Translations under genes and position numbers: made by a program
Notes under the pieces: model-generated
Databases searched by the model: none
The model's input: only the letters and a program-made list of their open reading frames with translations
What the model was told of the DNA's origin: nothing
Source of the DNA: Anaerolineae bacterium
GTDB taxonomy: Bacteria > Chloroflexota > Anaerolineae > UBA1429
Assembly: GCA_963675785.1 (NCBI GenBank)
Contig: OY776562.1
Span: 1,664,001 to 1,728,000 of the forward strand
Reading direction: 5' to 3'
Length of the DNA stretch: 64,000 bases
Part shown: positions 9,035-54,128 of the stretch, piece after piece
How the letters are laid out: every line of letters starts with the position of its first letter
Position numbering within the stretch: the stretch's first letter is position 1

Positions 9035-9574
9035 ATGAAACTATTGCACCCCATCGAGACTGAACGGCTGATCATCCGCCGCTTTGTGCCCGAAGATTGG
9101 CAGGACCTATACGCGTATCTCTCGGATGAGCGCGTGGTGCGCTATGAGCGCTATGGTCCCTTTAGCCGTGAGGCCGCCCAACGAGAGGCCGCCCGTCGGG
9201 CCGAAAGCGACGAATTCCTGGCCGTGTGCCTCAAAGAGTCGGGTAAGCTGATCGGCAACCTTTACCTGGGCGTGCGCGAATACGAGACGCTGGAGCTGGG
9301 GTATGTGTTCAACGCCGCCTATTGGCATCAGGGATATGCCACTGAGAGCGCCAGGGCCGCCATGGATTATGCTTTTACCACCGGCGCCGCTCGGCGCATT
9401 GTGGCCATGTGTAATCCCGAGAACGCCGCCTCATGGCACTTGATGGAACGGCTGCACATGCGCCGCGAGGGCCATTTGCGGCAGAATATCTATTTCGAGG
9501 TGGACGAGAACCAGCAGCCCATTTGGATCGATACGTTCATCTATGCGGTGTTGGCTTCAGAGTGGGGGAAGTGA
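9035..9574 (+). CDS. GNAT N-acetyltransferase, RimJ/RimL family
   Basis: IETERLIIR, ELGY, YWHQGYATE, NAASWHLMERL. Confidence 0.9.
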   Translation: MKLLHPIETERLIIRRFVPEDWQDLYAYLSDERVVRYERYGPFSREAAQREAARRAESDEFLAVCLKESGKLIGNLYLGVREYETLELGYVFNAAYWHQGYATESARAAMDYAFTTGAARRIVAMCNPENAASWHLMERLHMRREGHLRQNIYFEVDENQQPIWIDTFIYAVLASEWGK

Positions 9575-9638
9575 AAGAAAGAGAATAAAAAGAACAAATG
9601 ACTTGGGGAGACAGCGCCATCAAACCACAAGCAATGGC

Positions 9639-12600
9639 TTATGATTCTTTTGGCAGATAAATCAAAGAACAACGACAGAATGATGCGAATATGCCAAAAA
9701 GCTTTTTCCAGTTGATTTCCAACTCTGCCATTTTCATGAAACGAGGAAAGTTGCCCAAAAAGCAATGCCAATCACCAAAATGGTCGGATCTAGGAATGCA
9801 AGCATACATAGCAGTATGAAGAATACTCTTTGTCCCTCTCGCCAGTTCTTTAGCTGGATAATGCTCGTATAATGCCATATCAGGAAACGACGAGTACCAC
9901 TCGTCTGTATATCTGGATATCTCCACGGCTGAAAGGTTTTGGCTAATAATATAGTCAAGATCCTGGGAATGAATAAAGCCGTTTCTAAACGGTGCAAACT
10001 CCTCATCATCAGTATCAACCAGATCATGATTAGAAGCATTCGTATATATACAACCCTCAACAATGTTGTCATACTCTTGCGGAACGCCGGTAATGTGAAT
10101 CTCTCTTTCTATAAGGGCTTGCTTGAACAATTCTGAATAATCAGAAAGTAAAATACCTTTTACATCATAAAAGTCTATGCTTTTCGAATGCCAATAAGTA
10201 GACAGATAACTACGTATCTCTTTAGTAATATCTTCTTTAAGAAGACTATTGAGTTTTTCAGGTCTTAGTTCAAAAAAGCTGATATGTTTAGAGTCATAAT
10301 CAACACTATGGAAGTATCGGACAAAAAAGACATCACTTTTCCTATTGAGATATGAATTTAAAAGTAACCTTATGCCCTTTTCGGATTGATCCATTAGAGC
10401 AGAGAGCACTTTTGGGGATGTCTTTTCTTCGATTACACCAACTTCTTCAAATGTCAGTAATGCTTCCGCCATGGTCGAGACGGAGTAGTCCTTTCTGTTG
10501 AAATACATAAAAAAGTATTTCCAGACAGATAAGATATCAGTTTCACTATCACTGTGATTTACGTATCGCAGAAAAGCCAAGACGCGTTCACAAGTCTCAA
10601 AGGATCCTTGCGAAGCACTATCCTCAATGACGTCGAGAAGAGTTTTATCAGAAAATTCGGACGTATATCCGAGGGAAGATAAGGTTAAATAAAGCTCCTG
10701 GAAAAGTCTAGAACACATAACCTCCGGCAAATATAGTTCACGTCGATAGTACGCTAGAAGATGAGCGGGAGCGAAATCACCTCTACAAGAGACGATTTTG
10801 CATATGTCCTCATACAAAGGACTATCACTAATTTTATGTATATAAATATAAGAAAACGCAACTAGATGGGAATTATAAAAGACTTCATAAGATGTGTTTT
10901 TCAGATTTATTCCATGAAGTTGTTGATCAAGTGATTCCCAGTTTCCCCAATCAAGCTCTTCGATATTGAGAAATGTAGTTTCCTGCGTAACAGCCTTCTT
11001 AAAATCCCGCTCCGCTTTTTCTACATCATAATATGTTCTGCTGTAGGACTGTCGATAGTACTGGCTGTTCTTATGGAGGCGTGCCCGATAAGCCCCCCAA
11101 ATGAAACCCGTACTGAAGATACTGTCAATCGTGATGCCGTGCTTGTGCCAATACTCCGTAATATGAAACCAGAGACGCTCTGATCCCGCAAAGTCATGTC
11201 GTTCGGTGATAAGGCAAATAAGAATGAACGCATAATACTGATAATAATCCAGCAGTTTCTCAGACATGTGAGAAAAACGTTTTTTTAACTGCCAATAGAA
11301 TTCCTTGACAGATTCAAAGTCATAGTTTTCATCAAGTAGCTTTTTAAATACATCGAAATCAGCGTATTTTTGAAGCACCTTCGCCACAAAATCATCATCG
11401 AAATCAAATCCACTGAATCGTGAAAGATACTCTATTTCCCTGCTCAAGATGCTATCTTGAATTTGATCTATAACTTGCGAATGATCTACCACACAATTAG
11501 GCTGCCCGAGAAGATACGTATTCAAACTATCATGTATCAATGAAACACGTTTTTCATTGATCTCGAATAGATAGGGATGCTTTTTGATGAATTCCTCTAC
11601 CAGAAAAGCTGCCAATTCATGGTTCAGCAAATCGTGTATCTCTTTATATGTAAAGTAAAATCTATTAGTACTAAACAAGCTCAATGCTTTACTAATACCA
11701 TCAAATTGCATCAATGAATCGTAATAGGCATTTATGCTGTCTATTTTTTGATCAACTGCTATTTCATGATATATTATATAGTGTTCTGCTAAATAATTCG
11801 TAATAATTGGATATCCATCAGCGATTTCATATATCCTTGCTGCGGCATCAGGATCAATTTCCTTATATTCGACAAGAAACTTGAAAGTTTCACTTCTTCC
11901 CCAATTTACCAGCGTTCTTCGCTTCCATGATATCTTGCGCCTGAGTGGACGTGTTAGAACAACAACTCTGGCTTCTTGGAGCTTATCCACAAATGCAAAA
12001 TAGCGATCTAGCTCATAGCACCGATAATTCTCGATATGATCCAAACCATCTATGAAAAGAGTCAGGGTCTTATCATTGATTTCTTCTATGAGTTCATCTT
12101 CAGTAAACTCTTTGGGGGAATGAAATACTTTTTTGCAAAGATCCCTGATAAATTCAGAATATTCCAGACGATCGGATGCATTAGGATCCTGCGACCCTAT
12201 CCAAAATCTATATACGATAGCATTGGGATATGCTTCAACAAGCTCGTTCACAAAATGGCTTTTCCCAACTCCAGGCTTTCCAATAATGCAAAGAACACCC
12301 TTCTCAGGAATAGCCGTATCATGATTTACATCGAAAGTGCCCTCTGATAGAATCGCAGAAAATGCCTTTACAAATGGCAGATCATCTCTTATTACTTTGC
12401 AATTGCCATTCGAACAACATGTATGGGCGAACGAGATAATGTGGCTAATCCTTTCAGAGCTGGGATACATTTCTGTGATTTTCCGTTCAATCACGTCAGG
12501 GCTCAAAGGAACAACATAAACACCTTCTTTTAGTTTTTTTGCATTCAGGCCCAAGATCACATCCTGACATTCATCAAGTGGTATGCAATCGGTGTTAATC

Positions 12601-12887
12601 ACAGCTATGCTTGTCTTATCTCCGGCAATACGACTACAACTGCCTTTTACACTAAGAACTCCTTGTTCAGAAAGCTTGATTTCCTCAAGCGAGGTACCGG
12701 GGTAATCTTTGACCTGAAAACAATAATCGCCACCGGTATTTGTAAGACACACATCATCAAAATTATGTGCAGCGTCAAATTCGGCATCGATAGAGGTAAC
12801 ATTAGTTTCACAATCCATTATTGCCAAGAGCAAGCAATAAACTTGAACCTGATAAGCATATCCCTTGAATGCAAATAAGGCAGCCAT
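9639..12887 (-). CDS. N-terminal PD-(D/E)xK (Cap4-like) nuclease fused to a STAND/NACHT-like ATPase; Avs-like defence candidate
   Basis: N-term GYAYQ...E...FDD...FQVK; Walker A GKPGVGKS; Walker B LFIDGLD; VLTRP; GYPI; long helical C-terminus; AT-rich; RBS GAGGG before ATG 12887. Confidence 0.75.
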   Translation of the reverse strand: MAALFAFKGYAYQVQVYCLLLAIMDCETNVTSIDAEFDAAHNFDDVCLTNTGGDYCFQVKDYPGTSLEEIKLSEQGVLSVKGSCSRIAGDKTSIAVINTDCIPLDECQDVILGLNAKKLKEGVYVVPLSPDVIERKITEMYPSSERISHIISFAHTCCSNGNCKVIRDDLPFVKAFSAILSEGTFDVNHDTAIPEKGVLCIIGKPGVGKSHFVNELVEAYPNAIVYRFWIGSQDPNASDRLEYSEFIRDLCKKVFHSPKEFTEDELIEEINDKTLTLFIDGLDHIENYRCYELDRYFAFVDKLQEARVVVLTRPLRRKISWKRRTLVNWGRSETFKFLVEYKEIDPDAAARIYEIADGYPIITNYLAEHYIIYHEIAVDQKIDSINAYYDSLMQFDGISKALSLFSTNRFYFTYKEIHDLLNHELAAFLVEEFIKKHPYLFEINEKRVSLIHDSLNTYLLGQPNCVVDHSQVIDQIQDSILSREIEYLSRFSGFDFDDDFVAKVLQKYADFDVFKKLLDENYDFESVKEFYWQLKKRFSHMSEKLLDYYQYYAFILICLITERHDFAGSERLWFHITEYWHKHGITIDSIFSTGFIWGAYRARLHKNSQYYRQSYSRTYYDVEKAERDFKKAVTQETTFLNIEELDWGNWESLDQQLHGINLKNTSYEVFYNSHLVAFSYIYIHKISDSPLYEDICKIVSCRGDFAPAHLLAYYRRELYLPEVMCSRLFQELYLTLSSLGYTSEFSDKTLLDVIEDSASQGSFETCERVLAFLRYVNHSDSETDILSVWKYFFMYFNRKDYSVSTMAEALLTFEEVGVIEEKTSPKVLSALMDQSEKGIRLLLNSYLNRKSDVFFVRYFHSVDYDSKHISFFELRPEKLNSLLKEDITKEIRSYLSTYWHSKSIDFYDVKGILLSDYSELFKQALIEREIHITGVPQEYDNIVEGCIYTNASNHDLVDTDDEEFAPFRNGFIHSQDLDYIISQNLSAVEISRYTDEWYSSFPDMALYEHYPAKELARGTKSILHTAMYACIPRSDHFGDWHCFLGNFPRFMKMAELEINWKKLFGIFASFCRCSLIYLPKES

Positions 12888-13057
12888 TATGTCCCTCACA
12901 AACTAGTCGATGTCTTTGCAATAAACGAACAGGAACTCGATATCGCAGCAGAATCATATGATTTATGACAACCCAGTAGCGCACTTACTATAGCGGTTTA
13001 TTAACGGCAATGCCACCCTTTTTCCTTACTCTCACGCACCTGCCAAACGCTAAAGCA

Positions 13058-13098
13058 AAGCCCGGAGCATACGCTCCGGGCTATTTATTCTTTGGGAA
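13058..13098. repeat. Palindromic terminator-like repeat, copy 2
   Basis: AAGCCCGGAGCATACGCTCCGGGCT; perfect stem; positioned to terminate the GrpB-family gene on the minus strand. Confidence 0.75.
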
Positions 13099-13105
13099 CT
13101 AGAGC

Positions 13106-13675
13106 TCAATCATATCGCGCGCCGTACAATGCCTTTGCTTCTTTAGTGTACTTGTAGATAAACTCGGCCTTGTTATCGGTATAAGCATCGCGGTTGTGTT
13201 CGTACGCTTGCCACAAGCCGAGTTTCAAGCTCTCGTACTCGCTGGCGACTTGCGGATGGTCGTTCAAGTAATCGCGGAAATACAGCTCGTCGTTGTCCCC
13301 GGCGTACCGCAGATGCAGGTGGAACACCCTTTCCGAAAAACCGTCCGGCGTATAGCCCTTGTTGAAGGACAACCTTCGTTCGCTTGACGACATGCAAATA
13401 TACCCGCTGGCCTCGATCAGCGGCACGATTTCGTCGAGGCTGCACCCATCGACAACCTCGACCAGAATATCGACAATCGGCTTGGCCCAGATCGTATCCA
13501 CCGCCGTGCTGCCGATATGGCTCAGGCGGGCGATCTTGTGCGCGGGCAAAACCTGGCTCAGATGATTGGCTTCTTCTTCATACCACGCGTGCCAACGCGG
13601 GTCATGTTCCACCAGAACGATGGGGAATAATTGCCACAATTCATCCAAGGTCATTTCAGAAAGTGATTTTGGCAC
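13106..13675 (-). CDS. GrpB family protein (UPF0157, nucleotidyltransferase-like)
   Basis: HIGSTAV, AKPIVDI, FRDYL, Y..LK, YTDNK. Confidence 0.85.
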   Translation of the reverse strand: MPKSLSEMTLDELWQLFPIVLVEHDPRWHAWYEEEANHLSQVLPAHKIARLSHIGSTAVDTIWAKPIVDILVEVVDGCSLDEIVPLIEASGYICMSSSERRLSFNKGYTPDGFSERVFHLHLRYAGDNDELYFRDYLNDHPQVASEYESLKLGLWQAYEHNRDAYTDNKAEFIYKYTKEAKALYGARYD

Positions 13676-13744
13676 AGGCTAGTCCTCTTCATGAGCTATG
13701 ACGGCTCTGTAAGGCACTCAATATAACCCTATCGGGCGGAGATG

Positions 13745-14110
13745 CTACTCTTTCTTGCCCTCACGCACCCATTCCTTATGCAGTGCATCGCGGGAGGTAG
13801 AGGCGGGCTCATAGCGGGCCTCCAGGCGGATGGCGCCGTGACGGCAAGAGGCCTCGCACTGGCCGCAAGAAGCGCAGGTATCAGCATCATAGCGCATACG
13901 CAGGCCACCATCGGGCAGACGTTCCAACACCAGGCTGCCAGCTGGACAATCGCGAACACAGAGGCTACAGCCAGTGCATTTATTTATGTCAACTACTACC
14001 CGGCCACGGTAACTGTCGGGCACCACGCCCATTACCTCCAGCCCCACAGCTTCACGCGGGGCCCGCGAACGGCGCAGCACGTGGCGCAGCAAATAGATGC
14101 GCTTGGGCAT
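13745..14110 (-). CDS. 2x[4Fe-4S] subunit of group-4 hydrogenase (MbhN/EchF/NuoI-like)
   Basis: YRG...CTGCSLCVRDCP and CASCGQCEASCR; TAATG overlap with upstream gene sets start at 14110. Confidence 0.9.
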   Translation of the reverse strand: MPKRIYLLRHVLRRSRAPREAVGLEVMGVVPDSYRGRVVVDINKCTGCSLCVRDCPAGSLVLERLPDGGLRMRYDADTCASCGQCEASCRHGAIRLEARYEPASTSRDALHKEWVREGKKE

Positions 14111-15036
14111 TAGAGCCTCCCCATCCACACAGTAAAGAGCATCTGGGCCAGGCCAGCAGGCACCAAATACAGCCAGCCAAAGGCCGCCATCTGGTCAATG
14201 CGCACCCGAGCGAACAACACTTGCACCAGGGCCAGCATGGTCACCATAAGTGCTGCCTTGAGGCCATAGGCCGCAAACCCGGCCAAACCCACAAAGGGAG
14301 CTCCCCCACCCAAATAGACCGCCACCAGCAAATTGACGCCCACCAACGTTTGCATCATGACGGTGAGCTTCCACAAGGCCAGCTTGCGGCCGCTGTATTC
14401 AGTGAGCGGGCCAGCGCCCACCTCTGATTTGGCGTGGGGGATATCAAAGGGCACCCGTTTGAGCTTGCCGATGAGCCCGACGACCGACACCATAAAGCCC
14501 ACAGGCTGCCAGAACACGCTCCAGCCCCCCTGCGCCTGTGCCGAAACCAGCCCCATAATGCTCCAGCAGCGCGTCAGCAGGGCCGGCGCGGTCAGTCCCA
14601 GCAGCAGGGGCACTTCGTAGGAGAAATATTGCAACAGCGAGCGGTTGCCACCCAGCGCGCCAAAAAAGCTGGGCGCGGTCCATCCAGCCATGAAATAGCC
14701 CAGCGTAGGGATGCTCAGCAGGAACAACACCACGATGAGGTCGGCCTCAAAATCGGCTGCGGCCCAATCGCCCACGGGTACATAGAGCGCCGCGGTGAGC
14801 ACCGAGGCGATGGAGACGATGGGCAGCACGGCGCTCAGGGCGGCGTCGGCCCCACGAATGGTGATGTCCTCCTTGGCGAACAGCTTGATGATGTCGGCCA
14901 GGGGCTGGTAGACGGGCGGGCCCACCCGACCCTGGAACAGCGCTACCAGCTTGCGATCCAGCCAGTGCACCAACAACGAGGCCGCCAGCACGTACAGCAG
15001 CCCGGGGAACACCAGCACATGGAACAAGGTCGTCAT
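14110..15036 (-). CDS. Membrane subunit NuoH/MbhM/EchB-like
   Basis: DRKLVALFQGRVGPP, QPLADIIKLFAKE, SYEVP, RVPFDIP, GPLTEYSG. Confidence 0.92.
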   Translation of the reverse strand: MTTLFHVLVFPGLLYVLAASLLVHWLDRKLVALFQGRVGPPVYQPLADIIKLFAKEDITIRGADAALSAVLPIVSIASVLTAALYVPVGDWAAADFEADLIVVLFLLSIPTLGYFMAGWTAPSFFGALGGNRSLLQYFSYEVPLLLGLTAPALLTRCWSIMGLVSAQAQGGWSVFWQPVGFMVSVVGLIGKLKRVPFDIPHAKSEVGAGPLTEYSGRKLALWKLTVMMQTLVGVNLLVAVYLGGGAPFVGLAGFAAYGLKAALMVTMLALVQVLFARVRIDQMAAFGWLYLVPAGLAQMLFTVWMGRL

Positions 15037-15072
15037 CAAGAACTCCTATCAGGGAGATCAGGATCTCCGATC

Positions 15073-16155
15073 TCAGCGGTCAGCACAAGCGATACACAAG
15101 TCGGCCCCGGCAATCACCGCGGCTACATCGGCGGTCTGCACGCCCGAAAGCAAGTGCGGCAGGCTGGCCAGGGTGGGCAAGGTTGGCGTGCGCACTTTGA
15201 CCCGCGCTGGCGTATCAGAGCCATCCGAACGCACATAGTAAAACAGCTCGCCGCGCGGCGCCTCTATGCGCGTGGTCACCTCGCCAGCGGGCACCCGCCG
15301 AGGAGCGCGCACTTGCACTTCACCCTCGGGCAGGCCGTCTAATATCTGATGGACGATTTTCAAGCTCTCGTCGATCTCGGCCAGACGCGTATGCGCCCGG
15401 CACCATACATCGCCGCCGGTGCCGGTAATCACTTGGAAATCCATTTCCTCATAGGCCAGGTAAGGCTGTTGTTTGCGGATATCCAGCGTGCAGCCCGAAG
15501 CGCGCGCCGTGGGGCCTACCAGGCCAAGTCGGTGCACCAGATCGCCGCCCATCACCCCCAGTCGGCGGGTTCGGGCCTGAAAATTGCGGTCGTGCAGCAC
15601 CATATCGCGAAACAGCTTGAGCTGCTCCTCAAACTCGGCCAAGTTGGTTTGTACATAGCGCTCGTGGTCGGGTGTCAGATCGATGCGCACCCCGCCGATG
15701 GAGGTAGCCGAATGGGACACGCGTCCGCCGGAGAGATCCTCCATCAGGTCGAGGATGATCTCGCGGTCGCGCCAGGCGTACATGAAAATAGTGGTAAAGC
15801 CAATGGCCTCGGAAAGCACGCCCAACCAGAGCAGGTGGCTGTGGATGCGCTCTAATTCGCAAAGCAACATGCGAATGTATTGGGCACGGCGCGGCACCTC
15901 GATACCGGCCAGCTTTTCCACCGAGAGGCAAAAGGTGGTGGTGTGGGCTTGCGAACAAATACCGCAAACACGCTCGACCAGGTGCACATTCTGAATATAA
16001 GTGCGCTGCTGGGCCAGCTTTTCGATGCCGCGATGCACATAGCCGATGCGCAGATCGGCGCCCAACACGGTCTCGCCAGATACGCTCAGGTTGATGGAAA
16101 GGGGTTCTTTGAGCAAGGGATGTTGCGGCCCGATGGGGATACGAGTCGGCGTCAT
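15073..16155 (-). CDS. Group-4 [NiFe]-hydrogenase large subunit (MbhL/EchE-like)
   Basis: IGPQHP, GYVHRGIEK, L1 ERVCGIC, ELERIHSH, EAPRGE, L2 DLCIACADR-stop; all four Ni-Fe Cys present; no C-terminal extension. Confidence 0.92.
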   Translation of the reverse strand: MTPTRIPIGPQHPLLKEPLSINLSVSGETVLGADLRIGYVHRGIEKLAQQRTYIQNVHLVERVCGICSQAHTTTFCLSVEKLAGIEVPRRAQYIRMLLCELERIHSHLLWLGVLSEAIGFTTIFMYAWRDREIILDLMEDLSGGRVSHSATSIGGVRIDLTPDHERYVQTNLAEFEEQLKLFRDMVLHDRNFQARTRRLGVMGGDLVHRLGLVGPTARASGCTLDIRKQQPYLAYEEMDFQVITGTGGDVWCRAHTRLAEIDESLKIVHQILDGLPEGEVQVRAPRRVPAGEVTTRIEAPRGELFYYVRSDGSDTPARVKVRTPTLPTLASLPHLLSGVQTADVAAVIAGADLCIACADR

Positions 16156-16589
16156 GCGTTCTCCTCCTCATTCAACAAAGGCGGTGGTCCCTGCCAGTCG
16201 TCGGGCAACAGCAGCGGCTTGATCTCCCCCCGGCCCTCGATGGTGACGCCCAGCATCTCGTGCACCTCGCGCTCGTACCAGTTGGCTACCAGCATAATCG
16301 GGGTCAGGCTGGGTACGCTCAGATCATCCATCGGCAGCAACAGGCGCAGGGTAATGCCACAGCCGCCGTAAAAGTGGTACATCAGTGAGACGCCCTGGGG
16401 CAGGCGTTGGCCAGTGATGGTGGTCAAGTGGTGCACATCTGCCGCCACCAGGGCTCGCGCCGCCTCGATCAGATTCTCACGGGGCAGGTCATAGCAAATC
16501 TCGTTCTGGGGGCCCTCACCGCGTTGGGCACCGCATTCAACAAGCGCAGTGTCGATGGCGGCGAGATCAGCAGAAAGCAGATCATCCAT
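16152..16589 (-). CDS. NuoC/MbhK/EchD-like subunit
   Basis: HLTTITG, VPSLT, ANWYEREVHEMLGV, LLLPDDW..PPL. Confidence 0.9.
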   Translation of the reverse strand: MDDLLSADLAAIDTALVECGAQRGEGPQNEICYDLPRENLIEAARALVAADVHHLTTITGQRLPQGVSLMYHFYGGCGITLRLLLPMDDLSVPSLTPIMLVANWYEREVHEMLGVTIEGRGEIKPLLLPDDWQGPPPLLNEEENA

Positions 16590-17008
16590 CAGATACCCTC
16601 CAACAGTTGGGAAATGGCCTCGATGACGGCCTCGGGGCGTGGCGGGCAGCCGGGAACATACAAGGCCACCGGCACCACCTGATCGATACCGCCCAGCACG
16701 TTATAGCTGGCCTGCACAATGCCACCCGAACAGGCGCAAGCGCCAATGGCCACCACCCAACGCGGCTCGGCCATCTGCTCGTAAATGCGCCGTAGCGGGC
16801 GCGCTGACTGGCGCGTCACCGGCCCGGTGGTCAGCAGAATGTCGGCGTGACGCGGCGAGGCCTCTTTGAGGATTCCCAGCCGCTCAATGTCATAGCGGGG
16901 CGTCAGCAAGTCGAGAATCTCGATATCGCAGCCGTTACAGCCGCCGGTGTTGTAATGCAGCACCCAGGGCGATTTACGCCGCGCCCAGCGCACCACGCGG
17001 TCGATCAT
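16589..17008 (-). CDS. Hydrogenase small subunit (MbhJ/EchC/NuoB-like)
   Basis: GGCNGCDIE, SPRHAD, GACACSGG, VPGCPPRP; ATGA overlap at 17005-17008. Confidence 0.93.
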   Translation of the reverse strand: MIDRVVRWARRKSPWVLHYNTGGCNGCDIEILDLLTPRYDIERLGILKEASPRHADILLTTGPVTRQSARPLRRIYEQMAEPRWVVAIGACACSGGIVQASYNVLGGIDQVVPVALYVPGCPPRPEAVIEAISQLLEGI

Positions 17009-17343
17009 GATTCCTCTCCCTCGTGGGTTAGTACGTCCACGCAAAGCCCGGTGCCCAGCAAAAAGGCCGCTGCCAGCACCCAGGCGTTGCCCTCCAGGGG
17101 CAGCATAGCTACCACCAGTGCGGCCATGTGTACCACCACAAACATCAAACCCAGCCTGAAATAACGTTGGTAAGAGAGCTCCATCTCCTCAGGCACTAAC
17201 TCTTGCCCCCCGGCGTAAGGCTCTATCTTGCCAGGTTCATCATCTCGACCGCGAGGGGCGATCCTGCCGGACCAGCGATAGAGGCCATAGGCCAACAATC
17301 CGAAAAGGGCCAGCGCCAGTGGGGGGCTTGTCAACCAATCCAT
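17005..17343 (-). CDS. NuoA/MbhI-like membrane subunit
   Basis: Three TM segments, K.EPYAGG loop, YF..GLMFVVVH. Confidence 0.8.
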   Translation of the reverse strand: MDWLTSPPLALALFGLLAYGLYRWSGRIAPRGRDDEPGKIEPYAGGQELVPEEMELSYQRYFRLGLMFVVVHMAALVVAMLPLEGNAWVLAAAFLLGTGLCVDVLTHEGEES

Positions 17344-17344
17344 G

Positions 17345-18787
17345 TCAACCTCCCAAGGCCAACAAGGAGGCAGCTGCTTTCGTAGCAGCTACCATCACCG
17401 GGGTGGGCCAGACGCCCATCCCCAAGGCCATAACCGCCATTAGCACCATGGGCACCAGCATCCAGGCGGAAACAGGAGCATGCGGCCCCTCAATGCGCTT
17501 GTGGGTGAGCAGTCGACCCACCAGGGGCACGTAATAGCCCAAGCTAAGCAGGCTGTTGAGCACAAAAAGCACCACCACCGTGCCACTCAGCCAATCCCAC
17601 TGGCGCAGACCGCCCTGCAAGAACAGCCACTTGCTGATAAAGCCGTTGAGTGGTGGCACACCGGCCAGCCCCAGCAATGCCACAGTGAACACTACCGTCG
17701 TGGCCGGTGCGCGGTCCATCAACCCGTCCAGATCAGAGAGCATGGTGCTATCCATGTAATAGTGACAAACGCCTTTGCTGAGAAAAGCCAGCCCCTTGAG
17801 CAGCGCGTGGGCGGCAATGAGGTAAAAAGCCGCGGCCAGCATCTCCACATGCCCGCTGACCAAACCCAACCCCAGGGCCGCGGCCACATAGCCGGTCTGG
17901 GCAATGGAGGAATAGGCCAACATCCGCTTGCCGTAGGTTTGCACCAGGGCCATGCTGTTGCCCACCGTCATGTTGAGCACGCCCTCGACCACCAGCGCCC
18001 AACCCAAAATTCGCGGCTCAATGCCCAAGCCCAGCCCTACGCGCACCAACACCAGCAGATTGACCTGGATGAGCACACCAGAAAGTAGCGCGCTGATGCT
18101 GGATGGCGCTCGTCCATGAGCATCGGGTAACCAGGTGTGCGCTGGCACCAAGGCTGCCTTGACGGCGTAGCCGAGCATCATCAGCACGGCGCCAAACAGG
18201 CCCCAGGTGCCCATGGCAGCAGCACCACTAGTCAAAGCCAGGCTCCCCGACTGGCGATAGACATAGCCCAGGCCAAAGAGGATGAGCATGGCTGCAGATG
18301 AGCCCATGATGGCGTACTTGAAACCAGCCTCCACGGCGGTATCCGTGGTGCGGCGAAAGGCCACCAGCACATAAGAGCAGGCGCTGGCCAGAATGGTAGC
18401 CAGATAGAGCGTGAAGAGATCGACGGCGCAGAGCATGGCCAGCAGACCAGCGCACATCAGCAGCACCAGTGAATAGTAATAACGATAGCGCTTATCCTCC
18501 GACATATAGCGCCCCGAGTAGACGGAGATTAGCAGACCCAGGCCCAACACGATGACGCCCATAAAACGCGATACATCGTCTATAACAAAAGTGGCCGCCG
18601 TACCCTGGCTGGAGGTCCAAGCTAGGCCGTTTGTCCAGCCAAGCAGTAGGCGTCGCAAGGCCACAGCAAACACAGCGGCTGTAAGCAGGGCCATCAAGCC
18701 ATTACTGCTGATGAGGCGGCTGACGACATAGAGCGATACCGCGCCCAGCGCTAGTACGACCAGGGGAGCCAACAGGGGATCAGACAT
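17345..18787 (-). CDS. Mrp-antiporter-like subunit (NuoN/MbhH/MrpD-like)
   Basis: EAGFKY, KAALVPAHTWLPDAH, KRMLAYSSIAQ, HALLKGLAF, GVPPLNGFISK; start MSDPLL 18787. Confidence 0.9.
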   Translation of the reverse strand: MSDPLLAPLVVLALGAVSLYVVSRLISSNGLMALLTAAVFAVALRRLLLGWTNGLAWTSSQGTAATFVIDDVSRFMGVIVLGLGLLISVYSGRYMSEDKRYRYYYSLVLLMCAGLLAMLCAVDLFTLYLATILASACSYVLVAFRRTTDTAVEAGFKYAIMGSSAAMLILFGLGYVYRQSGSLALTSGAAAMGTWGLFGAVLMMLGYAVKAALVPAHTWLPDAHGRAPSSISALLSGVLIQVNLLVLVRVGLGLGIEPRILGWALVVEGVLNMTVGNSMALVQTYGKRMLAYSSIAQTGYVAAALGLGLVSGHVEMLAAAFYLIAAHALLKGLAFLSKGVCHYYMDSTMLSDLDGLMDRAPATTVVFTVALLGLAGVPPLNGFISKWLFLQGGLRQWDWLSGTVVVLFVLNSLLSLGYYVPLVGRLLTHKRIEGPHAPVSAWMLVPMVLMAVMALGMGVWPTPVMVAATKAAASLLALGG

Positions 18788-18788
18788 G

Positions 18789-20234
18789 CTAGGCACCTCC
18801 GGGAATGAGCAATCCGGCGGCGGCACTGCCCCAGCCATAGAGCAGGCCGGGAAACAACCCCAGTATGAGCACCAGCAGCACAGCCGCCGCAGTAGACCAA
18901 CGCATGGCCGCTGGCACCTGTTGTACGGCCATATCCAGCGGGGCTTGGCCGCTGTTTACGCGCACAACAAGCCATACCGCGTACATGGTCGTAGCCAGCG
19001 GTGCCAACAGTTCCAGCACGGCCAACAAGCTATAGGGCGCAGCAAACCCGGCCAGGATGATTTGCAATTCGCCGTAAAAGGCGGCAAAGGGCGGTAGCCC
19101 GGCAATAGCCATGGCGCCCAGTGCCAACCAAAGGCCAGCCCCGGGCAATACCCGGGCCAGTCCACGAATCCGCTCAATATTGCGCCGCGAGGTGGCCAGC
19201 ATGATCCAGCCCACGGCCATAAACAGCGCTGCTTTGATCAAGCCGTGGGTAACCACCTGCATCACGGCGCCGGTCAGGCCGGCCTCACTCAGCGTACCGA
19301 TGGCAAAGAGCACATAGCCCATCTGGCTGACGCTGGAATAAGCGACGATGCGTTTGATGTCGTGTGAAGAGATGGCCATCAGGGCGCCGTATATCTGTGA
19401 CACCAAACCGGCGATCATCAGCGGCACTTGCAAGGGCTGTAATGCCGCCACGCCCAAAATGCCCACGGCAAAACGCATCATGCCATAGGCACCCATGCTG
19501 AGCATAGCCCCAGCCAACATCACCGTCACCGGCATGGGAGCGATCGAGTGGGCATCGGGCAGCCAGGTGTGCAATGGAAAGACTGCCAACTTGACGCCAA
19601 AGCCCAACACCAACAAACCAGCCAACCAAGTGAGCGTCGTGGCAGGAATTCCTGCCGCCATAGCCTGGCCAGTCATATCGGTGGTACCAGAGTGAACCGC
19701 CATATAAGCCAGCACGCCCAGCACCGTCAGCGAGCCAAGCTGGGTATAGAGCACGTACTTGAACGTAATGCGCCCAACCTGCTCGCCACTGCCCCACCAC
19801 AAGAGCAATAAGCTGGAGGCTACCAGCATGAGTTCCCAAAAGAGGAAAAAGACCAGCGCATCGTGGGCCAACACGGTGCCCACCATACTGCCGCAAAAGG
19901 CAGCCATGAGCGCATAGACGACGTGCCCGCGTGGAAAGCTTTGTAAATAGCCCAGACCGTACAGGCTGGCCAACAGTGTTACGCTCAGCACGGTGATGGC
20001 AAAAGGCCGGGCCAGGGCATCCAGCACCAGGCTAAAGGATGGCCCGTTCTGAATCCAAGGCAGTGAGAAGGAGCTTGCAGGTGCGACAATCACTAAAACG
20101 AGGGTAGCTCCCACAGCGGTACAGGTCGCCACACCGGCGATGCGCGTCCGCTTGGTCAGCCGCGCGGGCAAGACGAAACTGATCAGGCTTGCCGCCCAGG
20201 GCAGTATCAGAATGAGAGCGAGCATCCAGGGCAA
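18789..20234 (-). CDS. Mrp-antiporter-like subunit (NuoM-like)
   Basis: FFLFWELM, KLAVFPLHTWLPDAH, KRIVAYSSVSQMGY, HGLIKAALF, GLPPFAAFYGE; start TTG 20234 (RBS GGAGG) or ATG 20225. Confidence 0.9.
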   Translation of the reverse strand: MPWMLALILILPWAASLISFVLPARLTKRTRIAGVATCTAVGATLVLVIVAPASSFSLPWIQNGPSFSLVLDALARPFAITVLSVTLLASLYGLGYLQSFPRGHVVYALMAAFCGSMVGTVLAHDALVFFLFWELMLVASSLLLLWWGSGEQVGRITFKYVLYTQLGSLTVLGVLAYMAVHSGTTDMTGQAMAAGIPATTLTWLAGLLVLGFGVKLAVFPLHTWLPDAHSIAPMPVTVMLAGAMLSMGAYGMMRFAVGILGVAALQPLQVPLMIAGLVSQIYGALMAISSHDIKRIVAYSSVSQMGYVLFAIGTLSEAGLTGAVMQVVTHGLIKAALFMAVGWIMLATSRRNIERIRGLARVLPGAGLWLALGAMAIAGLPPFAAFYGELQIILAGFAAPYSLLAVLELLAPLATTMYAVWLVVRVNSGQAPLDMAVQQVPAAMRWSTAAAVLLVLILGLFPGLLYGWGSAAAGLLIPGGA

Positions 20235-20244
20235 GGTTAGCCTC

Positions 20245-21558
20245 CTACAATAACGAAAATACAGCAACAAAAGCCAGCGCTAGTACAATCAGGCCGGCCA
20301 TCCAGGCCAGATTGGCCCGCAGCTTGCCCGTGTGCAGGCGGCGCAAACGGCGCCCTACCTCCAATGCTGAACGCTGTACATTGACAAAACCCTTTTCAAG
20401 GACATGCTCATCGATGGCGCTGGCCGCACGCGAGGCGCTCTCGGTCAAATGCCAAACCCAGGCATTGAGTGGCTCTAGCAGCCGCGTCTCGACGAATAAG
20501 GCCGCAATCGAAAGCCTATCCCATCTTGTGTTCAATGGGGCGTTATCAGCGTATTCGCCCCGAGCCTCGTCCACAACTCTTGGGGCAGACAGGATCATCA
20601 ATACCCCTCGCAGCGGCATGAAAGAATAGAGATAGGCATATGGCCAGCCCAGAGGCACAATCACCAGCGCAAGCGCCCCATGTGCTACTTCCAAATGGTG
20701 CAAGCGCAACCTGCTTTCGGCTCGAACAGCGCAAATCAGAGCCCAGATCATGATTCCGGCACCGGCCACAACCAAAGGAGTCGTCAGGTGCAGTGCCTGA
20801 ATGCCGCCCTCCAAACGATAGAGCAAATAGGCGCCCAACAGAGGTAGGCCCGCCGTAGCCGCCGACCATCGTTCAGGGCTAGCGATCTCGCCTGCAACGG
20901 CTAACCAGCGATCAAATGGATAGAGGCCCAGCTTGATCCACACTGCCAACAGGCCCATCAGTACTGCCAGCCAGGTGGTACCATCGGCTGCCTGGGCAGC
21001 GGCAGCCAACATGGGGGAGATGAGCAGCGTGTCGTGGGCCTGCCAGAGCACGATGATAGCCCCCAGCAAAGCCAGATCGCCCAAACGCAAAGTGAGAAAA
21101 GAGCCGACTAGATCGCGCCAATTGCCGCGACGTACCGTCATAACCAGCGTGGCCAAAGCAGCCGCCTCCAGAAAGGCATAGCGGTAGAGAAAATGGTTGA
21201 CGTTCAGCGCAGCAAAAGAGGCAGCCAGCAAGATCGGTGCAGCCAAAGCCTGCCACCAGGCCGACGCAGGTTGATCGGCATCTTGCCAAAGCAGCAGGGC
21301 ATAGCCCAGAATGGCCAGCCCGCTCAACTCGGTGCCGCGCTCATCCAGGGCAATCACTCCCGGCTCGATCCAGGGAATCCAGCCCAGATTGATCGTTGAA
21401 GCATCGCGGTGAACTAGGGCCACCAACGCAGCCAAAGCAACAGCTACCGCCACCATACGCAATAGCCGCGCGCGTTTGGCTGTAACCGGAGCAGGCAAGG
21501 TACGCAGCAGTCCTCCTGCCAAAGCCAGTGCCAGCGTTGCCATGATGAAATAGATCAT
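20245..21558 (-). CDS. Shortened NuoL/MrpA-like antiporter subunit
   Basis: FLE, RLGD, IKLGLYPFDRWL (variant of K.AQ.P...WLP), C-terminal LRRLHTGKL plus TM as in NuoL; only 437 aa. Confidence 0.75.
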   Translation of the reverse strand: MIYFIMATLALALAGGLLRTLPAPVTAKRARLLRMVAVAVALAALVALVHRDASTINLGWIPWIEPGVIALDERGTELSGLAILGYALLLWQDADQPASAWWQALAAPILLAASFAALNVNHFLYRYAFLEAAALATLVMTVRRGNWRDLVGSFLTLRLGDLALLGAIIVLWQAHDTLLISPMLAAAAQAADGTTWLAVLMGLLAVWIKLGLYPFDRWLAVAGEIASPERWSAATAGLPLLGAYLLYRLEGGIQALHLTTPLVVAGAGIMIWALICAVRAESRLRLHHLEVAHGALALVIVPLGWPYAYLYSFMPLRGVLMILSAPRVVDEARGEYADNAPLNTRWDRLSIAALFVETRLLEPLNAWVWHLTESASRAASAIDEHVLEKGFVNVQRSALEVGRRLRRLHTGKLRANLAWMAGLIVLALAFVAVFSLL

Positions 21559-35197: not shown

Positions 35198-38100
35198 TTA
35201 ATTGAGCACCGATTCAAGTGCGGTAGCCAATGCCGATGGGGTAAAGGGCTTGCTCACAAAGTAGGCTCCCTGGGCGATGACTTGCTGAGCAACCGCCGAA
35301 TTATCGCCATAACCCGACATGTAGATCACTGGCAGGCCGGGCATATCCCTAACAAGGCGCTCGTACAAACTGGCCGAAGAGAGTCCGGGCAATACCACAT
35401 CAGTGAGCAGCACATCGATCTTGCCAGAAACCGGTGCAAGTTCCAGAGCCATCTCGGCGTCTTCGGCAGCGATAACGCGACAACCCAGGCGCTCAAGCAT
35501 ACGCGTGGCCAGAATGCGCACATCGGATTCATCTTCAACCAACAACACCGTACGTTGTTCACCCTCCTGCAAAGAGTCAACCTGAGAGATAGTAGGGGTC
35601 GGTTTGACAGGAGCCGTCAACACATCCGATACAAGCGGCAGGTAAACATCAAAGGTAGTGCCCTTGCCAGACTCTGAGTGAGCCTCGATGTATCCATCGG
35701 CCTGGGTAATGATGGCGTACACTGTAGCCAGCCCCAGCCCCGTACCCTCGCCAATATCCTTGGTGGTAAAGAAGGGCTCGAACATGTGCTCCATAACTTC
35801 GGGAGTCATACCAACCCCCGTATCCGAAACGGAAAGCCGTGCAAAAGCTCGTGTACCAGTGGCTTTATCGCAAAGAGCATCGGGGAGATCGCTCGATTCA
35901 ACACGGTGCAGTGAGAGGTTCAATTTGCCGCCATTGGGCATGGCGTCGCGGGCATTCACAGCCAGGCTAACCACAGCCTGTTGTAGTTGAGCAACATCTA
36001 TGAGCACAGGGAGCGGTTCTCCCGCCAGATCCAGCACCAACTCAATGCGTTCATCGAGGACAGAACCGACAAACTGCCGGGCCCGTTCCATCTCATGATT
36101 CAAATCGATCCGCCGAACGCTAAGTACGCGCTGGCGCCCGAATTCAAGCAGTTGGCCAGTCAATTCCGCTGCACGCATGCCAGCATTGAGAATGGCCAGC
36201 ACGTCCTCACGTTGAGGATCATCACCCGGCATGCTGCTCAGCAAAAACTGGCTGTACCCGTTGATTACAGTAAGCAAGTTGTTATAGTGGTGAGCAATGC
36301 CGCCAGCGAGCTGGCCAAGGCTCTCCATCTTGCTGGAAATGCGGAATTGCCGTTCATATTCGCGCCTGGGGGTAATATCCCGAGCGATGCCCATTACACT
36401 TTTGGCCTCTCCGTCCGACGCACGATACACAGACACTTTGGCCTCCATCATAGCCTCTCGCCCCGTCTTCGTTTGCAGTGCCAACTCCAACGTGAGTTCA
36501 CGATTGGTCGGCGAAAGCAGTAGTGCCGATACAGCAGCGTTTGCCGTGTCTCGCGAAGAAGGCGAGATAATCTCAAATACACTCGTGCCCACCAGCTCTT
36601 TGGGGATATAACCCAGAATTCGCTCAACCGAGGGGGCGACAAAAGTCAGAATGCCCTCGGGTGTGCATGACCAGACAATATCACTAGTGCCTTCGGCGTA
36701 GAGGCGATAACGCGCTTCGCTCTCTTCGAGAGCGCGCACGCGCAAGCGGTGGCTTACAGAAGCACCTAGTTGAATGGCAACAGTACGCATAAAAGCTGCA
36801 TCATCTGCCGAATAGGCTTTTTCGGATGTGTAACTCTGGATAGCAACCACGCCATAGGGCTGGCCATCTTCGACCAAGGGGGTACCAATATAAATACGCG
36901 GCACTCTGCCGCGAGCCTTGATGACGCCCTCGCCGGCCAGCTTGCGAATCTCGGGGTCGGTAAGAACAACCTGATCGCCCTTTTCGATAACGTATTCGGT
37001 GATGCCGCGATCAGAAGATCGACAAAGATTGGCGTTCATATCCGGCACGGCCAGGTTGGATTCAACATAATAGGGAAAACTGACCGCATTATCTTCTACA
37101 TCATACAAAGCAAGGTAGAGATTGGGAACCCGTATGGTACACTCTAGGTGGCTGTGCACCACCGCCATTAGCCCAGCTATTGTTTTGCAAGATGCGCCCG
37201 CCTCACAGATGGCATACAATACCTGATCCCGCAAGGCTTTCTCGTAACGGCGCTCTTCCAACGCCAGCGCTACTTCGGTTTCGCGCAGCAGGTTGACCTC
37301 GTGGTGCGTAGGAGTTTTATGATTGTCGAAAACCAGCCCAATCGCACCCTTTTTGTCGCGGTCTGCCTGAACACGGCGCGCACAATAAAGGAAAGGTCCC
37401 TGTACACCCTGGATGCCCTCAGTCAATACTTGAGGAAGTACCACGTCACGCAGAATCATTAGCCCATTGCTAGCTGCCAACGAAGAGGGAAGTTGCCCTG
37501 CACCATCCATTAAAATGCTGAAATCTGGCAGGATCTCATCCACATCTCTTTGAGAGATCAATGTATCACCAGACAAGCCTCGCTCGTACACGGCGCAAAG
37601 CGCACCTGAAGCCAGGCGCAATTCACGCAGTATGGTCTGCATATTGGTGAGGGAATCAGAAGTAAGATGATCCCAACAGCCCTCGAGCACCGTCCGCATC
37701 CTCTCACCGCCAACAGATTCGCTAAGCGAATCCACCGGAGCAGAAACACTGAGGATAGCTAAAACGGTGCCCTGAGCATCACGGAGGGGAAGTTTGCATG
37801 TGCTAACCGAACAGGCATACCCATCAAAGTTGAGCGTTTGGGGTAAACATCGGAATTCACCAGTTGTCGTAACAATGGTATCGGCATCAGCAAGTACGCC
37901 CAAACGGAATGTGTATTCGGCCTTGTTTGTATTTTGCAGGTAAGCATCACATTCGGGACTACAGGCCAAAAGTTGCCCCGATGTATCTGCCACATACGCG
38001 ACTGTATCGAGACTGCGCACCAGATCGCAGTACCAACTCAGTTCTGGGTCGAGGGTAATCGGATCTTTTTTAATATCAACAGGCAGAGGATTGACCTGAA

Positions 38101-38347
38101 TGCTCAGTGAGTGCATCCCCTGAGTATCCGTCGTGAATTCGACAGTGAATTGATAAGCAACCCCATCCTCAGCACGAACGACACCCTGTCTCGTTTGTCC
38201 CGATTCGGCAGCAGCACGCGCTGCATCTTGCACCGCTTTGCATACCGAAAGGGGCCAATCACAAGATTCGATGGCGGCCAAAACCGCGTCAAGGTCTGCA
38301 ACTTGATTGTTCTGCCTGAGAGAACGTTTACTCACCGATACCACCAA
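35198..38347 (-). CDS. Hybrid sensor histidine kinase (GAF-PAS-HisKA-HATPase-REC)
   Basis: H-box GIAHHYNNLL, NARDAM, DTGVGM, FEPFFTTK, GTGLGL, REC LLVEDE...DVVLP...KPF. Confidence 0.92.
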   Translation of the reverse strand: MVVSVSKRSLRQNNQVADLDAVLAAIESCDWPLSVCKAVQDAARAAAESGQTRQGVVRAEDGVAYQFTVEFTTDTQGMHSLSIQVNPLPVDIKKDPITLDPELSWYCDLVRSLDTVAYVADTSGQLLACSPECDAYLQNTNKAEYTFRLGVLADADTIVTTTGEFRCLPQTLNFDGYACSVSTCKLPLRDAQGTVLAILSVSAPVDSLSESVGGERMRTVLEGCWDHLTSDSLTNMQTILRELRLASGALCAVYERGLSGDTLISQRDVDEILPDFSILMDGAGQLPSSLAASNGLMILRDVVLPQVLTEGIQGVQGPFLYCARRVQADRDKKGAIGLVFDNHKTPTHHEVNLLRETEVALALEERRYEKALRDQVLYAICEAGASCKTIAGLMAVVHSHLECTIRVPNLYLALYDVEDNAVSFPYYVESNLAVPDMNANLCRSSDRGITEYVIEKGDQVVLTDPEIRKLAGEGVIKARGRVPRIYIGTPLVEDGQPYGVVAIQSYTSEKAYSADDAAFMRTVAIQLGASVSHRLRVRALEESEARYRLYAEGTSDIVWSCTPEGILTFVAPSVERILGYIPKELVGTSVFEIISPSSRDTANAAVSALLLSPTNRELTLELALQTKTGREAMMEAKVSVYRASDGEAKSVMGIARDITPRREYERQFRISSKMESLGQLAGGIAHHYNNLLTVINGYSQFLLSSMPGDDPQREDVLAILNAGMRAAELTGQLLEFGRQRVLSVRRIDLNHEMERARQFVGSVLDERIELVLDLAGEPLPVLIDVAQLQQAVVSLAVNARDAMPNGGKLNLSLHRVESSDLPDALCDKATGTRAFARLSVSDTGVGMTPEVMEHMFEPFFTTKDIGEGTGLGLATVYAIITQADGYIEAHSESGKGTTFDVYLPLVSDVLTAPVKPTPTISQVDSLQEGEQRTVLLVEDESDVRILATRMLERLGCRVIAAEDAEMALELAPVSGKIDVLLTDVVLPGLSSASLYERLVRDMPGLPVIYMSGYGDNSAVAQQVIAQGAYFVSKPFTPSALATALESVLN

Positions 38348-49676: not shown

Positions 49677-50771
49677 ATGACGCAAACAGCCCTCTATAAC
49701 AGGCACGTCGCCCTTGGCGGCCGTATGGTTGACTTTGCTGGATGGGAATTGCCCATTCAGTATGCCACCGGCCCCAAAGCCGAACACCACTGCGTGCGCA
49801 ATCATGCCGGCCTCTTTGATATCGACCATATGGGCCAAGTTCGCGTCTCCGGCCCCGATGCAGTGCCTTACTTGCAGCATATACTTACGGCTAACATCGC
49901 CCGGCTTGTGCCCAGCCAGGCCCGCTATGCACTGATGTGCTATGCCGATGGCGGTATTGTGGATGATGTATTCGTCTATTGCGAGGCCAGTAGCTATATG
50001 CTGGTCATCAACGCTGCCAACCGGGATAAGGATATCCGTTGGTTAGCGTATCACGCTGACGATTACGACGTGCAGGTCGACAACATCTCGGACGAAACCT
50101 ACATGCTGGCGTTACAAGGGCCCCAGGCTCAGGCGGTACTGCAAAACCTTGCCTCATCTGATCTGGATACTATCGGCTTTCACAAACACGCCCATGTCTC
50201 ACTAGACGGCGTAGACACACTGGTGAGCCGCACAGGCTATACGGGCGAAGACGGCTTTGAGCTATATTTTGACGCTGCTGCCGCAAGTAATCTATGGGAC
50301 GCCATTCTAGAGGCGGGAGTGCCCTATGGCGTACAGCCCATTGGCCTGGCTGCTCGCGATTCGCTGCGGTTGGAGGCTGCTATGGCTTTGTACGGCCACG
50401 AGATTCACGCCCAAACCAACGCCATTGAGGCCGGGCTAAACTGGGCGGTTTCCTATAAAAAAGGGGATTTCATCGGTCGTGATGCGATTCTCAAAGCCAA
50501 ATTCGAGGGGACGGTACACACGTTGGTGGGTTTGCGCATGGTTGAAAGAGGTGTACCCCGTGAGCACTATGAGATAGCTCACATGGGCGAGTTGATCGGT
50601 CATACGGCCAGCGGCGGTTACGCACCCACTCTCGATGCCTTTATCGCCACAGCTTTTGTTCAGGGCGAGTATGCCCAAGCGGGCACAGAGCTGGATGTCA
50701 TCATGCGCGGTCAACCCCGCAAGGCTTTGGTAGTCGATCTGCCCTTTTATGAGCCGCGATACAAGCGCTAA
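49677..50771 (+). CDS. gcvT: Glycine cleavage system aminomethyltransferase T
   Basis: GGRMVDFAGWELP, GLFDIDHMG, SRTGYTGEDGFE, GLAARDSLRLEA. Confidence 0.95.
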   Translation: MTQTALYNRHVALGGRMVDFAGWELPIQYATGPKAEHHCVRNHAGLFDIDHMGQVRVSGPDAVPYLQHILTANIARLVPSQARYALMCYADGGIVDDVFVYCEASSYMLVINAANRDKDIRWLAYHADDYDVQVDNISDETYMLALQGPQAQAVLQNLASSDLDTIGFHKHAHVSLDGVDTLVSRTGYTGEDGFELYFDAAAASNLWDAILEAGVPYGVQPIGLAARDSLRLEAAMALYGHEIHAQTNAIEAGLNWAVSYKKGDFIGRDAILKAKFEGTVHTLVGLRMVERGVPREHYEIAHMGELIGHTASGGYAPTLDAFIATAFVQGEYAQAGTELDVIMRGQPRKALVVDLPFYEPRYKR

Positions 50772-54099: not shown

Positions 54100-54128
54100 C
54101 GAATTAGTTGATTATACCAGAGGATACT

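Follow-up and report, generated by a model that had tools for sequence, protein, structure and literature searches.

A nuclease–STAND–sensor gene in an Anaerolineae genome, probably encoding a single-protein antiphage receptor of Avs design

The window considered here, a stretch of 64,000 nt, comes from an Anaerolineae bacterium of the phylum Chloroflexota (contig OY776562.1, positions 1,664,001 to 1,728,000 of the forward strand). On its minus strand, at 9639–12887 and alone between genes for a GNAT acetyltransferase and GrpB, lies a gene for a large protein with a predicted nuclease head, a predicted STAND NTPase and a C-terminal sensor, the layout of the antiviral STAND (Avs) receptors. A reading made from the letters alone (hereafter the sequence-only reading) had pointed to an open reading frame (ORF) of ~1080 aa, AT-rich relative to its flanks. 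Both points hold, and the strand can now be added. The frame 9639..12899 opens with GTG and has 1086 aa; the ATG at 12885–12887 gives 1082 aa and the coordinates 9639–12887. The N-termini of family relatives align to this ATG start at 12887, and an entry of the protein collection (P0002) is identical over the 1082 aa. The G+C content (GC) of the gene is 0.383 versus 0.554 for the rest of the window; in 1-kb windows it is 0.37–0.40 over 9501–13000 versus 0.59–0.63 on either side. The features of the gene and its upstream flank are as follows.

9639–12887, minus strand: whole gene, 1082 codons plus stop, the stop at 9639–9641 (ORF reading)
12892–12897, minus strand: Shine–Dalgarno-like GAGGGA, 4 nt 5′ of the ATG (read directly)
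12987–13016, minus strand: promoter-like site, GTGGCA, 18-nt spacer and TATAGT, 9/12, ~100 nt 5′ of the ATG (consensus match only)
13059–13082, no strand assigned: G+C-rich hairpin, putative terminator of the upstream GrpB gene and upper limit of the low-GC insert (sequence scan)
12354–12887, minus strand: predicted nuclease core of Cap4/LmuA/HamA-type PD-(D/E)xK (about residues 1–128) and helical linker, residues 1–178 in all (profiles, conservation, model)
11493–12353, minus strand: predicted STAND NTPase module with nucleotide-binding domain (NBD), helical domain (HD) and winged-helix domain (WHD), residues 179–465 (Foldseek, VIA-align, weak Pfam signal)
12258–12281, minus strand: Walker A GKPGVGKS, residues 203–210 (family alignments)
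12036–12056, minus strand: Walker B FIDGLDH, residues 278–284 (family alignments)
11946–11954, minus strand: sensor-1 TRP, residues 312–314, R313 nearly invariant and P314 invariant (family alignments)
11808–11816, minus strand: GxP motif GYP, residues 358–360, invariant (family alignments)
11526–11540, minus strand: LIHDS, residues 450–454, with invariant H452-D453-S454 in the winged helix, MHD-like (alignments and model)
9642–11492, minus strand: predicted C-terminal sensor, residues 466–1082 (predicted structure)
10683–11087, minus strand: most variable stretch of the family, residues 601–735, majority residue 0.25–0.34 (conservation profile)
10368–10607, minus strand: conserved sensor block, residues 761–840, with S762, R774, K799, D800, S835 and G838 (family alignments)

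Promoter-like sites in the region number 7, versus 11.0 expected from shuffles, and taken alone the site at 12987..13016 is weak evidence for a promoter. The hairpin at 13059..13082 appears to separate the STAND gene from GrpB transcription.

The motifs listed in the sequence-only reading are all present: KGYAYQ (8–13), E36, D44-D45 and Q58-V-K60 in the head, and GKPGVGKS, FIDGLD (278–283), TRP and GYP further on. They occupy invariant or nearly invariant columns in alignments of 33 and of 67 full-length relatives, on which motif conservation was judged throughout, and are not chance occurrences. The attribution of the N-terminus to Cap4-type nucleases gained ground from the relatives. Heads cut from 65 of them, together with that of the window protein, gave 66 sequences, each scanned singly. 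Pfam Cap4_nuclease (PF14130) was matched by 20 of the 66 (best 1.2e-4), every other Pfam family by at most two members; among PADLOC models, LmuA was matched by 21 heads (best 4.6e-9), HamA1 by 23 (best 9.7e-7), SAVED-PDDEXK (Cap4) by six and four, and CBASS endonuclease effectors by four and three. The window's own head matched the PADLOC models SAVED_PDDEXK at 0.017 (residues 9–60) and LmuA at 0.024 (residues 8–65). Residues G9, Y10, Q13, M24, D25, E36, D44, D45, Q58 and K60 are invariant in the 66 heads and are found on helix 11–26 and strands 30–35, 46–50 and 53–60 of the AlphaFold2 model. The predicted topology, alpha-beta-beta-beta, carries the invariant E36 / D44-D45 / Q58xK60 in what would be the order expected of a PD-(D/E)xK core, and proteins of other genomes matching PF14130 display the same order, GYxYQ...IE...DD...QxK. 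As judged from profiles and signature, the head is a distant relative of PF14130, not a scored member. A search of PDB sequences with a profile of the head alone returned P-loop matches or noise only, as did the same search with the whole family and with the sensor.

The assignment of the central part to a STAND ATPase is borne out by structure. The whole-protein AlphaFold2 model, built on 67 sequences, has a predicted local distance difference test score (pLDDT) of 89.5 and a predicted template modelling score (pTM) of 0.84. Its NBD-HD-WHD module is matched both by Foldseek, with the STAND-TPR protein 6mfv (8e-9), Avs3 (8dgc, 3e-8), Avs4 (8dgf, 2.5e-5) and further CED-4, Apaf-1, NOD2, MalT and the Avs5 filament 9nc9, and by VIA-align, with Z 12–14 to STAND and NLR proteins over model residues 177–470. 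Conserved in the family are the Walker A (G203–S210), the Walker B (D280/G281/D283/H284), R313-P314, G358-Y359-P360 and H452-D453-S454; the Walker B FIDGLDH is taken to resemble the NACHT-like DGLD(E/H) form. P-loop families of Pfam give sub-threshold signals only, AAA_22 as well as NPHP3_N in 26 of 33 members and NACHT in 12 of 33; the window protein misses the NACHT (PF05729) cut-off, with 18.5 versus 26.7 bits (E 0.0019). Residues 179–465 form a STAND NTPase module.

For the ~600 C-terminal residues, which the sequence-only reading could not assign, no Pfam, NCBIfam or PADLOC assignment was obtained, and HMM profiles found no relative. Folded alone on 67 sequences, the sensor (about 620 residues) reaches pLDDT 90.8 and pTM 0.91, with about 25 helices (466–900) followed by a mixed alpha/beta end (900–1082). 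The earlier remark that no repeats are visible is correct at the level of sequence and fails at that of structure, where most of the sensor forms an irregular solenoid of helices. Foldseek against the PDB, a comparison that the sequence-only reading had proposed, gave generic ARM/HEAT/TPR solenoids with a best E of 0.58 and no match at E<=0.001; the best VIA-align score against 48,161 chains was Z 5.0, the best E against BFVD viral models 0.35, and the ESM Atlas returned only unnamed clusters, with scores of 0.81 and 0.77. A single-domain match may have been missed, because the sensor model exceeds 400 residues, and the lack of a structural match does not prove a new sensor fold. Conservation is uneven: nowhere in the protein is variation greater than in stretches 601–735 and 881–960, and the block 761–840, where D800 is invariant and K799, S835 and G838 nearly so, is as conserved as the NTPase. 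Going by this profile, the variable 601–735 stretch is the best candidate for a recognition surface; block 761–840 could make an autoinhibitory contact within the molecule or form a ligand pocket.

The protein belongs to a family of fixed architecture. A word-indexed search gave 361 relatives (best non-self identity 38%) and an exhaustive search 235 cluster representatives, of which 105 fell below 1e-30. Nearly all relatives have 1055–1110 aa and align end to end, around a length of ~1075 aa, and no domain-swapped relatives were seen among them. Relatives that seemed to share the C-terminus only were considered as other architectures and rejected: the family profile aligns from their first residue, and they are fragments or internal-deletion forms. 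A single ‘BSP peptidase’ match among the short relatives is likewise spurious according to the family-profile alignment. Two proteins, P0215 (428 aa) and P0234 (297 aa), are internal-deletion forms. In the former, the head (profile 2–139) is followed at once by the final 280 residues (profile 798–1074). Both may be decayed copies or assembly artefacts.

With each species represented by one genome, 112 of the 211 pattern matches proved to encode a relative; 80 loci entered the analysis. Most of these loci are from Bacillota and Bacteroidota; Leptospirales and Cloacimonadota contribute one genome each, and a Kapaibacterium and two archaeal bins are also represented. The archaeal bins, one of Methanobacteriaceae (L001) and one of Thermoplasmatales (L005), hold full-length copies nested in a Bacillota-dominated clade; these result either from inter-domain transfer or from mis-binned contigs, that of L005 being 4 kb long. 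No neighbour is conserved in the 80 loci, where the largest neighbour cluster occurs in 13 and at varying positions; therefore, the system is a single gene, in line with the sequence-only reading. None of the 22 large neighbour ORFs (>=800 aa) is paralogous to the family.

An association of homologs with defence genes, a check that the sequence-only reading had called for, was found. The two nearest ORFs on each side were scanned in loci L001–L038 of the 80, i.e. 131 of the 287 neighbour ORFs collected, with PADLOC at E<=1e-8. Matches, which are to single HMMs and are not called systems, were obtained for 37 of the 131 ORFs, in 23 of the 38 loci. They include Gabija, Thoeris, AbiE, AbiU, a type IV restriction enzyme, DrmD, Upx, AriA and LmuB, as well as methyltransferases and several PDC candidates. 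At the same threshold, 2 of the 52 other ORFs of the window, which serve as comparison set and are not a matched control, gave matches, both generic (a subtilase and an ABC-like ATPase). The contrast between the homolog neighbourhoods and the window is large. According to the available part of a recent census, a random gene has a chance of 0.0153 of lying within 5 kb of a defence system (Lee et al., Nature 2026, PMC13581612).

Larger genes occur beside some of the homologs. Directly upstream of the family gene in two Pedobacter loci (L017:6699-9989 and L056:6674-9982), a gene encodes a protein of 1096–1102 aa; in that of L017 the N-terminus is Aga_REase-like (1.3e-28) and a P-loop is weakly matched, and by the family profile it is not a paralog. 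This gene may be a second, different nuclease–NTPase defence gene in tandem. Three Bacteroidota loci (L022:7000-9867, L023:7000-9882 and L038:7000-9882) have an ORF of 955–960 aa immediately upstream of the family gene; it does not resemble the family and lacks a strong PADLOC match, the one hit being weak (5e-6, L038).

The copy in the window is intact and foreign to this genome. Its GC lies 17 points below that of the host, and the family as a whole is AT-rich (median GC 0.30, below the flanks in 57 of 63 loci). Of the 401 genomes sampled from the host's phylum, this one alone gave a match at 1e-10. In a maximum-likelihood tree, the protein sits on a long branch (1.2) inside a Bacillota-dominated clade, with a residue composition unlike the rest of the alignment; its neighbours are a Thermoplasmatales bin and a Christensenellaceae bin (Shimodaira–Hasegawa-like approximate likelihood ratio 96), the exact sister being uncertain because of the long branch. 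The lone copy among the sampled genomes of the phylum and the branch inside a Bacillota-dominated clade indicate that the gene was horizontally acquired, as the sequence-only reading had surmised. Around the gene there is no target-site duplication or terminal inverted repeat, and beside it no tRNA or integrase among the ORFs scanned; tblastn against 50,697 phage and 72,556 plasmid records gave no match. The 20 nearest genomes belong to other genera and have only fragments of the flanks in common, so that the ends of the insert are not fixed by synteny. Contigs of a close relative (run X5, organism B, from a different study) cover both flanking genes, with 34 differences in 9069–9439 and 14 in 13106–13706. 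Their likeness to the window is lost from 9567 towards the right and from 13086 towards the left, just where the low-GC gene has its edges; the gene itself is represented in that run only by scattered low-depth identical pieces, and no bridging contig was seen. This suggests an empty site in the close relative. The copy illustrates that such a gene can land alone, with neither a mobile-element vehicle nor a defence island, in a distant high-GC host.

Elsewhere in the window, a minus-strand operon at 13745–21558 resembles complex I or Ech- or Mbh-type hydrogenases, with 4Fe-4S ferredoxin, NuoH-like, NuoD/NiFe large subunit-like, 30-kDa, 20-kDa and antiporter-like subunits. Three further ORFs, at 35198–38347 (minus), 50768–53962 (minus) and 54108–57476 (plus), encode 1049–1122 aa and have no PADLOC match at 1e-8.

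The protein thus combines a three-part anatomy with intact catalytic and nucleotide-binding residues and a single-gene architecture, its homologs have a defence neighbourhood and its origin is foreign. It is quite likely to be a single-protein antiphage receptor of the Avs design, with abortive infection as the likely outcome. The closest guide to its mode of action is SeAvs7, made of a Cap4 nuclease, a STAND module and a helical sensor, and described as follows in the available part of Lee et al. (Nature 2026, PMC13581612). In the resting state, NBD and sensor C-lobe restrain the Cap4 head; once a target is bound, the sensor changes its arrangement, tetramers form upon ATP binding, and DNA is cut by the Cap4 heads assembled in them. 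Similarly, DUF4297 nuclease heads need dimerisation for activity in DUF4297-HerA, as stated in the available part of the published account. Because the anatomy is that of SeAvs3 and SeAvs7, the same chain of events is proposed for the family. The resting protein would be a closed ADP-bound monomer with the nuclease head kept inactive. Upon infection, a component made by the phage, most likely a conserved phage protein, would bind the C-terminal sensor and open the NBD-HD-WHD switch, ATP would replace ADP, and oligomerisation would follow. The oligomer would bring the Cap4-type PD-(D/E)xK heads together into an active double-stranded DNA nuclease, and this would destroy phage and host DNA, leading to abortive infection. 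Trigger, oligomeric state, substrate and abortive outcome are here extrapolated from SeAvs3 and SeAvs7.

Several alternatives deserve consideration. While still acting in defence, the protein might be a restriction-like nuclease dependent on NTP, with a C-terminal module that senses nucleic acid or a small molecule (modified DNA, an intermediate of replication or a signalling nucleotide, for instance) in place of a phage protein. The conserved sensor block 761–840, the mixed alpha/beta end and the absence of a match to solved protein-binding Avs sensors would suit such a module, and the Discussion of Lee et al. (PMC13581612), in its available part, allows that some STANDs may sense non-protein molecules. 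This version is nonetheless unlikely: residues 466–1082 contain no detected nucleic-acid- or nucleotide-binding family, the Avs triggers named in the available part of the same paper are all proteins, and the variable 601–735 stretch fits a diversifying protein-recognition surface. Equally doubtful is the more specific proposal that the conserved module ~736–1082, in which S762, K799, D800, S835 and G838 are invariant or nearly so, is a previously unseen sensor fold reading a nucleic-acid form or small molecule, not a phage structural protein; if true, the family would be a non-protein-sensing branch of bacterial NLR-like receptors in Bacillota, Bacteroidota and two archaeal bins. A different question is whether this particular copy works, since it could be a silent passenger, i.e. 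intact foreign AT-rich DNA that is unexpressed or non-functional in this host, which would not speak against a defence role of the family. Its GC 17 points below that of the host, its long branch (1.2) with an aberrant residue composition and its solitary occurrence among the 401 phylum genomes are compatible with this. Silence is quite improbable when set against a 3.2-kb frame that stays open with all family-invariant residues kept, its own Shine–Dalgarno and promoter-like site, and a GC of 0.38 versus a family median of 0.30, which suggests some residence under selection. Finally, a non-immune STAND NTPase, either a regulator like MalT or GutR or a protein for mobile-element maintenance or competition, is brought to mind by MalT among the structural matches of the STAND protein, by a locus with no defence neighbours and by the switching of STAND clades between defence and non-defence roles (Lee et al., PMC13581612, available part). 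Such a role is very unlikely: the protein has no DNA-binding output domain and carries instead a nuclease head whose catalytic residues are intact, homologs adjoin defence genes in 23 of 38 loci, and a mobile-element function is at odds with the absence of matches in phage and plasmid records and of flanking integrase or repeats.

The antiphage-receptor reading also has points that weigh against it. Antiphage activity, trigger, oligomerisation and nuclease activity are predictions made by analogy. The window's own head reaches no curated Pfam threshold; PF14130 has no match in it at E<=1 (cut-off 26.2 bits) or genome-wide, and an hhalign comparison of the head with five PF14130-type proteins, a thin template, gave E 0.011 and a probability of 4%. 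None of the Avs or other STAND defence models of PADLOC-DB v2.0.0 matched the 33 relatives at E<=0.01. The conserved 761–840 block would be unusual for a pure diversifying recognition surface. In this genome, the gene lies outside a defence island, its neighbours being the GNAT acetyltransferase, GrpB, a beta-lactamase-fold protein and the Ech/complex-I-like operon.

Compared with known systems, the structural features of the Avs class are all present, i.e. a central STAND NTPase, a fused N-terminal effector and a large C-terminal sensor, for which the available part of Lee et al. (PMC13581612) sets >=400 aa. The feature of genomic context, defence neighbours, is found for the homologs and not for the window's own locus. 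Like SeAvs3 (8dgc) and SeAvs7, the protein unites in one polypeptide a predicted Cap4-type PD-(D/E)xK nuclease, a STAND module and a large helical sensor. In the Foldseek search with the whole model, Avs3 (8dgc) ranks second (3e-8), and by VIA-align it is colinear with model residues 7–1082 (Z 12.2); the mode of action is expected, on this likeness, to be the same as that of SeAvs3 and SeAvs7. It differs from Avs3 in size, with 1082 aa versus a chain of 2028 residues, and from both SeAvs3 and SeAvs7 in having no sequence-profile match to PDB chains beyond the P-loop and in belonging to a family mainly of Bacillota and Bacteroidota, not Enterobacteria. The sensors of Avs3 and Avs4 (8dgc and 8dgf) were in the library searched and are unmatched by the sensor model at E<=0.001, in a comparison where model size limits single-domain matches. 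With Cap4 (CBASS), LmuA (Lamassu) and HamA (Hachiman), nuclease domains of the DUF4297/DUF1837 group, it shares profile signal and the GYxYQ...E...DD...QxK signature, the matches of the window's own sequence lying below curated thresholds. In those systems the nuclease is driven by a SAVED nucleotide sensor, the SMC-like LmuB or the helicase HamB, whereas here it would be driven by the fused STAND NTPase. Weak NACHT and NPHP3_N P-loop signals and a DGLD-form Walker B recall the bNACHT/NLR-like STAND proteins, from which the protein departs by scores below Pfam cut-offs and by the absence of a bNACHT model among its PADLOC hits.

As to novelty, the possibility of a new Avs subtype raised by the sequence-only reading has survived its PADLOC check: no Avs-named model of PADLOC-DB v2.0.0, a library that presumably contains AVAST/Avs models, matched the window protein at E<=1. 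By such profile tests, the protein scores as a member of none of the described families tested (PADLOC Avs/STAND, Pfam Cap4_nuclease, NACHT). A literature search by features found no paper on this family. The available part of Lee et al. (PMC13581612) reports 589 STAND clades and 684 sensor clusters and names Avs7–24; the family may well be in its tables, because the seed set of the census included Cap4-bearing proteins. Organism names and four family motifs had no match in seven supplementary files of that paper, which do not cover the clade and sensor tables. The design is well known, and the family itself is a solid annotation and a good target for trigger discovery, not a surprise. Avs-type receptors correspond, in bacteria, to the NLR immune sensors, and no two of the families studied so far read the same conserved phage component. 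In this context, a compact family of fixed architecture, whose sensor is modelled with confidence and lacks a structural relative, is a clean candidate for trigger discovery, and one lying outside the Enterobacteria, where nearly all such work was done.

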